Shown one piece after another: positions 27,325-30,240 of a DNA stretch of 64,000 nucleotides. A program made the translations under genes and the position numbers. The notes beneath the pieces are model-generated. The model was given only the letters and a program-made list of their open reading frames with translations, had not been told where the DNA came from and did not search any database. Each line of letters begins with the position of its first letter. The first letter of the stretch is position 1. The stretch is from Escherichia phage vB_EcoM-ZQ3: sequence record MW630116.1. The stretch is one strand, 5' to 3'.

Positions 27325-27840
27325 ATGAATATTTGTTTAGGCAGTACAATTCCTAAGGGCTACGTAATTGATGTCACTACCTATGAAAATGATGGTGACA
27401 ACTATAAAACCAAAACATTGTTTGAAGTGGAAGAGCATGAGCTCCAACAGTTTAAATATCTCTTGAAGAAATTTAAGAGCCGTCATTCTAGCACTAAAGC
27501 CGAACGTTATTGCGGTAATACACCATTCAGTGATTGTTCGCTTTTAATCTATGAATACTTGGTTGAAGGACTGTTCTCAGACCAGCTTTATCCAGAATTC
27601 ATTAAAAAGGTCTTTGGTATCGAAGTTGACCTTGGTGACAAATCCGAAGAAGATGAAACACGTGTATTCGACCTATTCTTTGAGAGCGGAGATGAGATAT
27701 CTCAAGGACTTATTGATATTCTTGGCTATGCTTCTGAATACTATGATTACGATTTCTTGCGTGTAGTTGAACGTGTTGAATTCGCTTATATTGAAGAAGA
27801 AATTGTTTTGCCGACTGTTAAAATGATTGATTTGCTTTAA
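27325..27840 (+). CDS. Hypothetical acidic protein
   Basis: 171 aa; GTGAGTAA RBS-like sequence upstream. Confidence 0.5.
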   Translation: MNICLGSTIPKGYVIDVTTYENDGDNYKTKTLFEVEEHELQQFKYLLKKFKSRHSSTKAERYCGNTPFSDCSLLIYEYLVEGLFSDQLYPEFIKKVFGIEVDLGDKSEEDETRVFDLFFESGDEISQGLIDILGYASEYYDYDFLRVVERVEFAYIEEEIVLPTVKMIDLL

Positions 27841-27919: not shown

Positions 27920-27994
27920 GGCCCTGTAGCTCAATGGGAGAGCTGTCAGCTCATAACTGATAGGTAGCTGGATCGAAACCAGCCAGGGTCACCA
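27920..27994 (+). tRNA. tRNA with CAU anticodon (Met, or Ile if lysidine-modified), CCA encoded
   Basis: Manual cloverleaf: acceptor GGCCCTG/CAGGGTC, D-stem GCTC/GAGC, anticodon loop CTCATAA, T-arm GCTGG-ATCGAAA-CCAGC, discriminator A, CCA. Confidence 0.8.
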
Positions 27995-28000
27995 AACAAA

Positions 28001-28072
28001 TGGTGCATCGTATAAAGGTTATTACGGGGAGCTGTTAACTCCTTTATCTTGGTTCGAGTCCAAGTGCGCCAG
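28001..28072 (+). tRNA. tRNA-Asn (GUU anticodon), no encoded CCA
   Basis: Acceptor TGGTGCA/TGCGCCA, anticodon stem GGGAG/CTCCT with loop CTGTTAA, T-arm CTTGG-TTCGAGT-CCAAG; 6 nt after the previous tRNA. Confidence 0.7.
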
Positions 28073-28117
28073 TAATTTAAACGAAGTAAATTAAGTGCTC
28101 TATCCAAATAATAAATA

Positions 28118-28136
28118 CTCCTATATTTTATAGGAG
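28118..28136 (+). promoter_or_regulatory. Hairpin sequestering the RBS of the downstream endonuclease gene
   Basis: Inverted repeat CTCCTATA-ttt-TATAGGAG; right arm is the SD 10 nt before the ATG at 28147. Confidence 0.5.
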
Positions 28137-28146
28137 ATAATTGGTA

Positions 28147-28812
28147 ATGAGCATTTGTAAACATTGTAATATGGAATTTGATATTTCTAATAAACCTAAA
28201 GGATGGATGGCTAACCACACTAGATGGTGTAAATCCAACCCTAAATTGGAATTGTATAAAGAAAGTTCTAAATCAGCCATTGCAGCAATGAATAAAGCAC
28301 GTATAGCTTCAGGTAATTTAAACCAGTATGTTGTATCTAAAAAGACTGGTGTCCCTGTAGTAATTTCGGAAGAGACTAGACAAAAATTGTCAGCCGCTTC
28401 ATTAGGTAGAGAACACTCTGAGGAATCTAGAATAAAAATATCTAATGCTCGGAAAAAATGGTTGAATGAAAACCCTGATAAACATCCTTGGAAGAAAAAT
28501 ACAAAATTTAAATCTGTGCCTTGTGAATTTTTGAAATCTAAATTAATAGAAAACGGAATTTCATTTATTGAAGAATACCAACCGGTTAAAAACCGAGCGT
28601 ATTGCACGGATATTGCTTTAATAGATAAAAAGATTATTATTGAAGTTAATGGAAACCAACATTACTCCAATCCTAAGAAAAAGATTTTGGCCCCTTATTA
28701 TAAAGAACGCCATGATATTATAAAATCATTAGGATGGGAAATATATGAACTTCATTATGCTGAAGTTTATAAAGAAGATATTGTAAATAATTTAATTGCC
28801 TCTATAGTGTAA
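28147..28812 (+). CDS. Putative free-standing homing endonuclease (N-terminal Cys/His motif, NUMOD3-like repeats, C-terminal Vsr/DUF559-like nuclease motif)
   Basis: CKHCN...HTRWC; ETRQKLSAASLGREHSEESRIKISNARKKW; C-terminal D..IIIEVNGNQHY..RHD...LGWEI; sits between tRNA genes and overlaps tRNA-Arg by 15 nt; no GIY-YIG motif. Confidence 0.6.
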   Translation: MSICKHCNMEFDISNKPKGWMANHTRWCKSNPKLELYKESSKSAIAAMNKARIASGNLNQYVVSKKTGVPVVISEETRQKLSAASLGREHSEESRIKISNARKKWLNENPDKHPWKKNTKFKSVPCEFLKSKLIENGISFIEEYQPVKNRAYCTDIALIDKKIIIEVNGNQHYSNPKKKILAPYYKERHDIIKSLGWEIYELHYAEVYKEDIVNNLIASIV

Positions 28813-28873
28813 TGGATAGCATATAATCGTTCTAAGGTTAATGGTGAGAGTTCAAATCTTTCTAGAGGCACCA
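28798..28873 (+). tRNA. tRNA-Arg (UCU anticodon), CCA encoded
   Basis: Acceptor GCCTCTA/TAGAGGC, D-stem GTGT/GCAT, anticodon loop GTTCTAA, T-arm GAGAG-TTCAAAT-CTTTC, discriminator A plus CCA. Confidence 0.8.
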
Positions 28874-28891: not shown

Positions 28892-29236
28892 ATGAAAGGC
28901 AATATTTATTTGGTAGTTCATGATTTAACGTTTTATTTTAACGAACAGGATACAGTTATTTCCGACCGGTTGATTAATTCGTTATATCAACACGCTGATT
29001 ACGTTTATTTTCAAAATGAATTCGGACATTGGAAGTTTCTTAAAAACCGTTCCGGGTTAACTAGTTTTGAATACTTTGACCGTAAAGACCTTTTAAACGA
29101 AATTCCATTACAACATCGGTTCCAGAAACGCGAATCACTATACTATTGTCGCCATATACCAAATGCTGAATGTGTTTATGAAGCGATTAATCTATGGCGT
29201 CGGCGTCGAGAGCAAATTGATGATATGCCAAAATAA
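28892..29236 (+). CDS. Hypothetical protein
   Basis: 114 aa from the ATG after GAGGAAAA immediately 3' of tRNA-Arg. Confidence 0.5.
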   Translation: MKGNIYLVVHDLTFYFNEQDTVISDRLINSLYQHADYVYFQNEFGHWKFLKNRSGLTSFEYFDRKDLLNEIPLQHRFQKRESLYYCRHIPNAECVYEAINLWRRRREQIDDMPK

Positions 29237-29546
29237 GAAGCCGGGTCGCTACCGGCAAGACGTCGGACTGATGTTCCCTGAGTAAGGATTGGTCTTAATA
29301 AATCTTTACGATTTGTTAATACCCCCTTACATCACAGCAGAAACGGCGCACAGAATTATCGATTCGAGGAAATATCTTTGCCGTAAGCCGAGTAGCGTTT
29401 TTGACGGAACGTTCGGATATGGTCGAGATATGGCCTTTTAAAAATATTGAGTAGCGTCAACTGCTTAATAACCGGGTTCGAATCCCGGCGTTTCGTACAA
29501 ACACTTACCTAGTAGGTGGAAACCCGACAAGGTTGCCGCAAGGCAT

Positions 29547-29575
29547 AGCCCCTTCCGAAAGGTTGGGGCTTTTTT
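29547..29575 (+). terminator. Rho-independent terminator
   Basis: AGCCCC...GGGGCT stem followed by TTTTT. Confidence 0.6.
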
Positions 29576-29576
29576 G

Positions 29577-29584
29577 TATAAATA
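29577..29584 (+). promoter_or_regulatory. Late promoter TATAAATA upstream of the 29620 internal-protein-like gene
   Basis: Exact consensus directly after the terminator, 35 nt upstream of the ATG. Confidence 0.5.
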
Positions 29585-29619: not shown

Positions 29620-30240
29620 ATGTATACTTTTAATGAATTTTTAGCCGAAACGGAAGTAATCACCGAAGCCGGCGTACGTATGACAAAAGAGAAATGGCAA
29701 GCTGCTTACGATGCTATTTCTGGTACAAAAACTAGTACAGAGTTTTTCAAAAACGTTCAAGCCATGTACGGTATCGACACTTCTAGCCAAAAAGAATATT
29801 ACAGAGCTTCTAAAGCATTCAAAGATATTGTTAGTGGTGGTGTTTCTGCTAAATCGGGTTCGCCTAAAGTAAAACCTGCTCCTACCATTCCTAAACCTGC
29901 GACCCCTAAAGCAAAACCTGAGCCTAAGCCTGAAGTAAAAGCAACTCCTAAAGCTCCTGCTCTTAAGTTTGATACTTCTAGCCTGGAAAAAAAATATAAA
30001 CAACTATCTTCGCTTGTTCGTGATATTGAATCCGATACATCTTCACTCGTTCGTGAATTCAATATTCTTCGTAATGGCCAACATATCAACAACCTTGATA
30101 CTCCAGACCTTTATCGTCTTTATTTGACTATCGAAGGTTTGAAGTATACTCAACCACTTCACGATGCGATTAAAGAAAAACTTCGTCAGGCAGGTCGTTT
30201 GGCTGCTGACGCTGCTCAGTATGCAAAAACTCGTAAGTAA
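29620..30240 (+). CDS. Internal-protein-like gene with capsid-targeting-type N-terminus and Pro/Lys-rich linker
   Basis: MYTFNEFLAETE resembles the capsid-targeting peptide; low-complexity PKPATPKAKPEPKPEVKATPKAP region; 206 aa. Confidence 0.55.
   Translation: MYTFNEFLAETEVITEAGVRMTKEKWQAAYDAISGTKTSTEFFKNVQAMYGIDTSSQKEYYRASKAFKDIVSGGVSAKSGSPKVKPAPTIPKPATPKAKPEPKPEVKATPKAPALKFDTSSLEKKYKQLSSLVRDIESDTSSLVREFNILRNGQHINNLDTPDLYRLYLTIEGLKYTQPLHDAIKEKLRQAGRLAADAAQYAKTRK

Follow-up and report, generated by a model that had tools for sequence, protein, structure and literature searches.

The rnaC (species 1 RNA) ortholog of Escherichia phage vB_EcoM-ZQ3 and its predicted tRNA-like structure

Identification of the rnaC ortholog

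We analyzed a stretch of 64,000 nucleotides (hereafter, the window) from the genome of Escherichia phage vB_EcoM-ZQ3 (MW630116.1), in which a first-pass annotation had marked positions 29380-29520, downstream of a cluster of tRNA genes, as either a decayed tRNA or a counterpart of the small stable RNAs that phage T4 encodes beside its own tRNAs. To judge from sequence comparison, the marked segment almost certainly lies inside an ortholog of T4 rnaC (species 1 RNA), an already-known gene for a stable non-coding RNA of ~140 nt at the 3′ end of the phage tRNA operon (Table 1). The second of the two suggestions was correct: in a base-for-base alignment 137 of 139 bases are identical to T4 rnaC, leaving two differences, and the T4 GenBank annotation (NC_000866 70908-71046) maps onto positions 29359-29497 of the window. 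The same sequence is identical over 142 of 142 nt to the annotated rnaC features of phages RB27 and RB3, and R1, a covariance model that we built from the homologs, matches the window at 29360-29500 with 157.5 bits (E 3e-37). The marked span thus covered the 3′ two-thirds of rnaC but missed its first ~20 nt and ran ~20 nt into the hairpin of the 3′ trailer. In addition, ~800 genomes of T4-type phages match the 340-nt non-coding stretch between the open reading frames (ORFs) that end at 29236 and start at 29620, and the homologous stretch of T4 is annotated as rnaD (species 2 RNA, 71053-71171) and rnaC (70908-71046), directly downstream of tRNA-Arg. The gene order, with tRNAs followed by rnaD, rnaC and a terminator, is the same as in T4 and RB27. 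Escherichia phage vB_EcoM_LNA2 gives the best match to the whole region and Mosigvirus-type phages come next, so that the lineage of the window appears Mosigvirus-like, judged by the phage names among the best matches. In T4, RNAC has been seen by Northern blot and classed as a late RNA (PMC9697503), and a transcript is said to cross the tRNA cluster and to terminate after the species I gene (PMC2330249).

Standard annotation tools pass over the gene. ARAGORN called only tRNA-Met (27920-27994), tRNA-Asn (28001-28072) and tRNA-Arg (28798-28873) in the window and nothing at rnaC, and Rfam at gathering score returned the same three tRNAs, with no match in the rnaC region. This agrees with the earlier remark that no complete cloverleaf could be folded here. 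The first-pass annotation had proposed an Rfam scan and regarded the lack of any covariance-model hit as a refutation; such a reading would mislead, because Rfam 15 holds no model for rnaC and for that reason gives no match, whereas R1 matches the locus. With permissive filters (E ≤ 10), Rfam gave at rnaC only tRNA-Sec with 16.6 bits (E 1.8; gathering score 47) and local matches to the T-arm. Sub-threshold matches to PyrR, isrK, asX2 and nse_sRNA were rejected, since they cover T-arm or terminator hairpins only.

Table 1 Features of the rnaC locus in the window
Feature	Position	Strand	Description
tRNA cluster heading the operon	27920-28873	+	tRNA-Met(CAT), tRNA-Asn, inserted ORF, tRNA-Arg; ARAGORN, Rfam
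rnaD (species 2 RNA) ortholog	29233-29352	+	86% identity to T4 rnaD; same transcript, upstream of rnaC
rnaC (species 1 RNA) ortholog	29360-29499	+	acceptor position 1 through the A of the UACA tail
P1, 5′ strand CGAUUCG	29360-29366	+	acceptor-stem analogue; pairs with 29489-29495; two central U.U mismatches
P2, 5′ strand AGG	29367-29369	+	D-stem analogue; pairs with CCU, 29434-29436
Long hairpin P3-P6	29372-29431	+	in the place of the D-loop; conserved 3-4 nt purine-U bulge at 29392-29394
L6 hexamer UUGACG	29401-29406	+	putative kissing strand in an 8-nt apical loop; exact complement of 29455-29460
CGGAACG, earlier proposed as acceptor 5′ strand	29405-29411	+	3′ end of loop L6 and 3′ strand of P6
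Unpaired GG	29432-29433	+	analogue of tRNA G18-G19; G29432 vs U29478, G29433 vs C29479
Junction strand UUUAAAAAU	29437-29445	+	A-rich, between P2 and P7; AAAAU core nearly invariant
P7	29446-29469	+	anticodon-arm analogue; 9-bp stem 29446-54/29461-69, 6-nt loop CGUCAA 29455-29460
T-arm	29472-29488	+	5-bp stem 29472-76/29484-88, 7-nt loop UUCGAAU 29477-29483
P1, 3′ strand CGUUUCG	29489-29495	+	directly abuts the T-stem, tRNA-like; covariation
3′ tail UACAA	29496-29500	+	discriminator U, then ACA at the place of the tRNA CCA
3′ trailer hairpin	29502-29518	+	7 bp, loop CUA; fold, compensatory differences vs T4; kept in phage MX01
Intrinsic terminator	29548-29575	+	GCCCC..GAAA..GGGGC (29548-29569), then U6 (29570-29575)

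Secondary structure and covariation

The homologs used for structural comparison comprise 34 distinct sequences from eleven genera of T4-type phages, collected from phage records, from IMG/VR with two search patterns that left the loops unspecified, and from metagenomes. The structure was tested on a MAFFT alignment (28 sequences) and on a model-based alignment (34 sequences), each against 500 shuffles and against slid controls. Both support a fold in which rnaC is very likely a tRNA-derived four-way junction. In the MAFFT alignment, 91% of the cells are standard-paired and 31 of the 52 pairs have changed on both sides, compared with none of 500 shuffles and with slid controls at 37-48%; the model-based alignment gives 92% and 32 of 54 pairs, again with no shuffle out of 500 and with slid controls at 35-46%. 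The thermodynamic fold is unusually stable, with an energy of -50.2 kcal/mol (z -4.55).

The covariation extends over most of the helices. The third pair of P1 changes from A-U to G-C in 22 of the 34 sequences, and in Tegunavirus its two U.U mismatches are replaced by U-A and C-G. P2 is invariant and paired in 100% of the 34 sequences, which makes covariation impossible for this helix. The long hairpin in the place of the D-loop has changed on both sides at 17 of 22 pairs (13/17 in P3-P5 and 4/5 in P6), and the variants of Marfa, PEi20, Kosakonia-305 and fGh-Ecl01 have this arm wholly rewritten with the same helices and bulge retained. All nine pairs of P7 have changed on both sides, and the T-stem is 100% paired with two covarying pairs.

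Two alternative pairings were considered and rejected. The acceptor proposed in the first-pass annotation consists of strands that are indeed present and complementary (CGGAACG at 29405-29411 and CGTTTCG at 29489-29495), but it is not the conserved pairing, in which 29489-95 is matched by the 5′ terminus of the RNA (29360-66): no compensatory change is found over 28 homologs, 500 of 500 shuffles reach its score, and in relatives a linked pair of changes, G>A and U>C, yields an A.C mismatch that breaks it. Forcing this acceptor costs ~13 kcal/mol (-36.9 vs -48.0 for the model). A perfect 7-nt complementarity between GAUUCGA (29361-67) and T-loop positions 29478-84 breaks in every homolog with a different T-loop and can be explained as a by-product, because UUCGAA is palindromic.

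Probable pairing between the two hairpin loops

The apical hexamer of the long hairpin and the loop of P7 likely pair with each other, loop to loop; within or between molecules is left undecided by the covariation. Each of the 34 sequences can form all six pairs, and the only substitutions in the twelve columns concerned are compensatory, giving UUGAUG/CAUCAA in Tegunavirus and UUGGCG/CGCCAA in the Klebsiella-phage class. None of 500 shuffles reaches this pairing, and slid controls remain at 16-50%. The covariation is not an artefact of how the homologs were selected, since the search patterns left both loops unspecified. A rough count of helix lengths suggests that closure within a single molecule is feasible, with P7, the kissing helix and P6 making up ~20 bp against ~20 bp for P5, P4, P3 and P2, and with the bulge at 29392-94 as a hinge. 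The paired triplets resemble codons and anticodons (GAC, GAU and GGC in L6 against GUC, AUC and GCC in the P7 loop), a likeness which may be coincidental. The literature that we searched, which did not extend to the original structural papers, contains no description of a kissing-loop and elbow model of rnaC, and this model may be new.

Features shared with tRNA

The T-arm described in the first-pass annotation (CCGGG-TTCGAAT-CCCGG) was confirmed at 29472-29488. Its core, GGTTCRANTCC, has three occurrences in the window where 0.19 would be expected, namely in tRNA-Asn, in the rnaC T-arm and at position 1700; the last site, which falls within an ORF of 611 codons and lacks a stem on either side, was set aside as a chance occurrence. 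Among the 30 sequences whose T-loop is of the standard form, almost all variation falls on tRNA positions 57 (G or A), 59 and 60, which vary in tRNAs too; the two Tegunavirus sequences also carry C at T-loop position 54. Of the two contacts expected at a tRNA elbow, G29432/U29478 (18 with 55) reads G.U in 30 sequences and C-G in the remaining 4, and G29433/C29479 (19 with 56) is invariant. The variant T-loop UGCAUNC and the change of GG to CG occur in exactly the same sequences, those of one Kanagawavirus lineage (IME523 type) and of Winklervirus, the carriers being IME523, CIP9 and the Winklervirus homologs. IME523 and six near-identical isolates (seven isolates in nine records) carry the variant at 99-100% identity, and because it recurs in seven independent isolates it is not a sequencing error. 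This pattern suggests that the GG and the T-loop make an elbow contact as in tRNA.

The 3′ end follows the same plan. As noted earlier, CCA is not encoded, since CGTTTCG runs into TACAA. All 34 sequences have a tail of the form U-N-C-A-A, which is UACAA here, UUCAA in Tegunavirus and UCCAA, with an encoded CCA, in the Klebsiella-phage class. The second-best match of R1 in the window is tRNA-Asn (19.2 bits, E 0.007), with P7 aligned on the anticodon arm and the P7 loop C-GUCAA standing opposite CUGUUAA of tRNA-Asn. Because of the T-loop variation, the elbow GG, the NCA tail and the P7/anticodon-arm alignment together, the comparisons indicate that rnaC derives from a tRNA whose D-loop has taken up a hairpin, and that its anticodon-loop analogue is one base shorter and would be permanently paired.

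Conservation and distribution

The degree of conservation sets rnaC apart from its surroundings. Between this phage and T4, identity is 98.6% for rnaC, compared with 86.0% for rnaD and 86.2% for the trailer and terminator; rnaC is matched at ≥99% by 500 of 764 phage records, the whole intergenic region by only 1 of 807. The two differences from T4 sit at the unpaired base of a 1×1 internal loop and at a position of P7 that is U.G or U-A. These values point to strong purifying selection on rnaC. Since its flanks (~86%) are much less conserved, its differences are structurally neutral and its helices covary, rnaC does not behave as a pseudogene, and the suggestion of a decayed tRNA is not supported.

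According to record taxonomy, the carriers include Tequatrovirus (T4, RB27, Kha5h), Karamvirus, Kanagawavirus, Moonvirus, Tegunavirus, Kagamiyamavirus and Winklervirus. Further homologs are found in Enterobacter phage PG7 and Edwardsiella phage PEi20, which we take to be a Karamvirus and a Kanagawavirus, respectively, and the Klebsiella-phage class, presumably Marfavirus and Jiaodavirus, is represented by phage Marfa and relatives. When more distant relatives were sought by two pattern scans of IMG/VR and one of metagenomes, nothing came back beyond T4-type phages of enterobacteria and random matches rich in GC. The fetched records of Kagamiyamavirus (EcS1), Karamvirus (Pet-CM3-4) and Winklervirus (Kc304, LC53) contain no rnaD; in these four phages, rnaC lies between tRNA genes, with the next tRNA 8-11 nt past the acceptor stem.

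Operon context

The operon has a smaller tRNA set (Met, Asn, Arg) than that of T4. ARAGORN assigns the CAT-anticodon tRNA at 27920-27994 to Met. The CAU-anticodon tRNA of T4 belongs to isoleucine and is read once a base has been modified; the one here may be of that kind or may be a Met tRNA, whether elongator or initiator. Between tRNA-Asn and tRNA-Arg lies a 223-codon ORF (28141-28812, +), the last 15 nt of which overlap the start of tRNA-Arg (28798). It gives weak Pfam matches, near the cut-offs, to NUMOD3 and DUF559/RAP (endonuclease-like). It occupies the slot of the GIY-YIG homing endonuclease SegB of T4, with no similarity to SegB (BLASTP E 2.1), and is probably a different free-standing homing endonuclease. 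A second ORF of 114 codons (28892-29236, +), extra relative to T4 and with no Pfam match, separates tRNA-Arg from rnaD, its stop codon overlapping the rnaD start at 29233; in T4, the distance from tRNA-Arg to rnaD is 1 nt.

The fold of rnaD is stable (z -4.45). It was considered as a paralog of rnaC and rejected, as R1 finds no match in it. The T4 gene ends in ...GGCGCACCA and that of the window in ...GGCGCACAG, so that the encoded CCA has been lost here. Near this end, GAAACGGCG (29340-29348) is complementary at 8 of 9 positions to the 3′ strand of the rnaC T-stem and acceptor, CGGCGUUUC (29486-29494), which makes an alternative pairing in the unprocessed rnaD-rnaC precursor possible. Downstream of rnaC, a small GNRA hairpin stands between the trailer hairpin and the terminator, and phage Kha5h has a terminator annotated at the site homologous to the latter. 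Three promoter-like motifs were noted as pattern matches only: MotA-box-like (A/T)(A/T)TGCTT(T/C)A at 27831-27839, ~90 nt upstream of tRNA-Met; a second MotA-box-like motif at 28612-28620, within the endonuclease-like ORF and upstream of tRNA-Arg; and a perfect T4 late-promoter consensus, TATAAATA, at 29577-29584, right after the terminator, for the next ORF.

A proposed tRNA mimic acting in trans and the alternatives

To our overall reading of the locus, an rnaC ortholog with a tRNA-derived fold, we give a probability of roughly 0.85; the proposal that its product acts in trans as a tRNA mimic is a much less certain part of it. Release by tRNA-type processing is probable on comparative grounds. 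A 12-bp acceptor/T stack with an elbow is the standard geometry of RNase P substrates (see PMC11143913), and for this reason we propose that the acceptor, T-arm and elbow would make the RNA a substrate of tRNA processing, with RNase P cutting the 5′ end at 29360 (±1 nt). The 3′ end would then be finished by exonucleases, by trimming or by the CCA-adding enzyme, freeing the RNA from the polycistronic tRNA transcript, and the locked arms would render it compact, nuclease-resistant, stable and non-decoding. Mature rnaC could act in trans by occupying or titrating a factor that recognizes tRNAs by their acceptor, T-arm or elbow, with a tRNA-targeting nuclease of the host and enzymes of tRNA processing or modification as candidates; this decoy or titration function is put forward tentatively. 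Somewhat more doubtful is a specific form of it, in which the mimic masks itself: the tip of the D-loop hairpin, with its codon-like triplet, would permanently pair with the molecule's own anticodon-loop analogue, so that the RNA would keep the acceptor/T-arm/elbow face, be unable to decode, and serve as a decoy or competitive inhibitor. The target might then be a host factor such as an immunity nuclease that cleaves tRNAs, RNase P, the enzyme that adds CCA, or one of tRNA modification or quality control; an alternative role for such an RNA, to be viewed with the same reserve, would be assembly into multimers through the two loops.

Several points weigh against the proposal of a processed mimic. 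The kissing covariation rests on two independent compensatory events, and the covariation of the elbow is confined to one or two lineages. The two U.U mismatches of P1 are present in 32 of the 34 sequences, and with the acceptor mismatched in this way and no CCA encoded in the window, efficient handling by RNase P and the CCA-adding enzyme is an assumption. Nothing in the sequence points to the supposed protein partner, and no conserved protein gene neighbors rnaC. Papers of 2010, 2022 and 2025 state that the function of rnaC is unknown (including PMC9697503 and PMC3014915), and the literature that we searched, which did not reach the original papers of 1975-2003, reports no function. Escherichia phage MX01 (Dhakavirus) lacks rnaC (region 1480-1730, locus numbering) through a clean indel of ~146 nt, with edges at the 3′ end of rnaD and at the 3′ tail of rnaC, and judging by this genome rnaC is dispensable for some relatives. 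Deletions of the rnaC region of T4 are likewise viable. MX01 retains rnaD, the trailer hairpin and the terminator, which shows rnaC to be accessory and separable; given also its place between tRNA genes in other genera, it behaves as an independent module in the manner of a tRNA gene.

The same dispensability in Dhakavirus, together with a location that is always within or at the end of tRNA arrays and with the T4 transcript said to run through the cluster and to end just past rnaC (PMC2330249), would suit an element acting in cis, which would guide or protect processing of the tRNA transcript (as an RNase P/RNase E entry site or a 3′ stabilizer) and leave the stable RNA as a by-product. We regard this as unlikely: a mere spacer needs neither invariant loops, a compensated kissing pairing and an elbow contact nor 98.6% identity beside flanks at 86%, and the position in the array varies by genus while rnaC itself stays conserved. 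By analogy with the pRNA of phage phi29, the two loops might instead pair between molecules and build dimers or rings that serve as an RNA scaffold. Covariation is blind to the difference between intra- and intermolecular pairing, and the two hexamers are complementary to each other and not to themselves, as such an arrangement would have it; we nevertheless deem it improbable, given that the rough helix-length count permits closure in one molecule and that T4 biology offers no known role for RNA multimers. Less probable still appears a regulatory small RNA that base-pairs with phage or host mRNAs. Some authors describe rnaC as a regulatory small RNA (PMC9697503) and its late expression would fit, but the conserved bases are nearly all in helices or in the mutually pairing loops, leaving UUUAAAAAU and the 3′ tail as the only conserved single strands, and T4 has no regulatory RNA of characterized function (PMC3014915).

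Readings that deny the locus a conserved structured RNA fare worst. One would take it for a functionless decayed tRNA, or for a class-II-like tRNA with CGGAACG as acceptor strand and P7 as long variable arm. ARAGORN at relaxed thresholds does call an odd tRNA at rnaC positions 45-139 with the fold of the first-pass annotation, and at default settings it reports, in agreement with the GenBank record, a "tRNA-Phe" of 96 nt within the homolog from Enterobacter phage KKP_3262. Both calls are spurious, because P3-P5, which that fold would destroy, has 13 of 17 pairs covarying. The internal acceptor, moreover, shows no covariation and is broken in half of the homologs, the forced fold is ~13 kcal/mol worse, and the strong purifying selection opposes a pseudogene; altogether, such a tRNA is very improbable. 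The chance that the region is protein-coding we put close to nil. Many GenBank records do place hypothetical proteins under the match, and a 50-codon ORF with a TTG start (29289-29441) is a "hypothetical protein" in many related records, but this ORF has no Pfam match and straddles two separately processed RNAs, the substitutions are compensatory within RNA helices, and the T4 literature documents stable RNAs from the region.

Annotation and significance

In most records, rnaC is unannotated or misannotated as hypothetical proteins or as a tRNA, because Rfam has no model for it. Related records show one to four "hypothetical proteins" over rnaD and rnaC, and the two RNAs are annotated in few (T4, the RB phages, Kha5h). 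In KKP_3262, the annotated "tRNA-Phe(gaa)" at 251-346 (locus numbering) corresponds to the 3′ two-thirds of an rnaC homolog at 207-348, its "anticodon" being drawn from the junction strand UUUGAAAAAU. In Citrobacter phage Moon (769-2391), the tRNAs are annotated on the strand opposite to the coding sequences and to the rnaC homolog (1502-1644, +), probably a record error. Hundreds of T4-type genomes leave rnaC without annotation or as a "hypothetical protein", and a model like R1 would correct this. Species 1 RNA has been an orphan molecule of T4 for ~50 years, since the 1970s; the comparison gives a constrained structural model, which makes specific mutants and searches for partners possible. 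If the mimic idea is true, an RNA would join the counter-measures of phages in the contest over the host tRNA pool, and if the RNA does mask its own anticodon-loop analogue, a molecule that has had no function since the 1970s would gain one.

Comparison with known systems

The closest counterpart is the T4 rnaC locus itself, which shares rnaD upstream, trailer hairpins and a terminator downstream, and the place at the 3′ end of the tRNA operon, and from which the RNA described here differs by two bases that we call neutral. With tRNA (RF00005), rnaC shares a 7-bp acceptor abutting a 5-bp T-stem, a 7-nt T-loop (U54 U55 C56 R57 A58), a suggested GG/T-loop contact, a discriminator followed by NCA, and a place in tRNA arrays with tRNA-like spacing. 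It departs from tRNA in having a hairpin of ~60 nt in place of a D-loop proper, an anticodon-loop analogue of 6 nt that lacks U33 and has all six bases predicted to pair with 29401-06, a connector of 9 nt between the D-stem and anticodon-stem analogues, a variable region of 2 nt, and two U.U mismatches in the acceptor; ARAGORN at default settings calls neither rnaC nor a construct with P3-P6 deleted. Like tmRNA, which is also found in phages, rnaC combines an acceptor and a T-arm with non-tRNA structure and tertiary pairing, but it is much shorter, has no tag frame, and carries A-U or G-C at 3:70 instead of G3.U70; ARAGORN made no tmRNA call, and Rfam with permissive filters gave only a 10-bit local T-arm match to the permuted-tmRNA model. 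The Y-RNA-like YrlA is a non-coding RNA which mimics the T-arm, D-arm and elbow of tRNA without decoding, and in this it resembles rnaC; in Rfam, no Y-RNA family matches rnaC even at E ≤ 10, and a Ro/Rsr-binding stem is not evident. By their defining features, rnaC is not a tRNA, a tmRNA or a YrlA-type RNA. The proposed pairing of its loops has parallels elsewhere: phi29 pRNA and other kissing RNAs likewise use two hairpin loops with complementary hexamers, which in rnaC covary, and the codon-like triplet of L6 faces an anticodon-like triplet much as the specifier of T-box Stem I faces the anticodon of its tRNA. Both are likenesses of working and not of homology, and in rnaC the two partners reside in one RNA of 140 nt.

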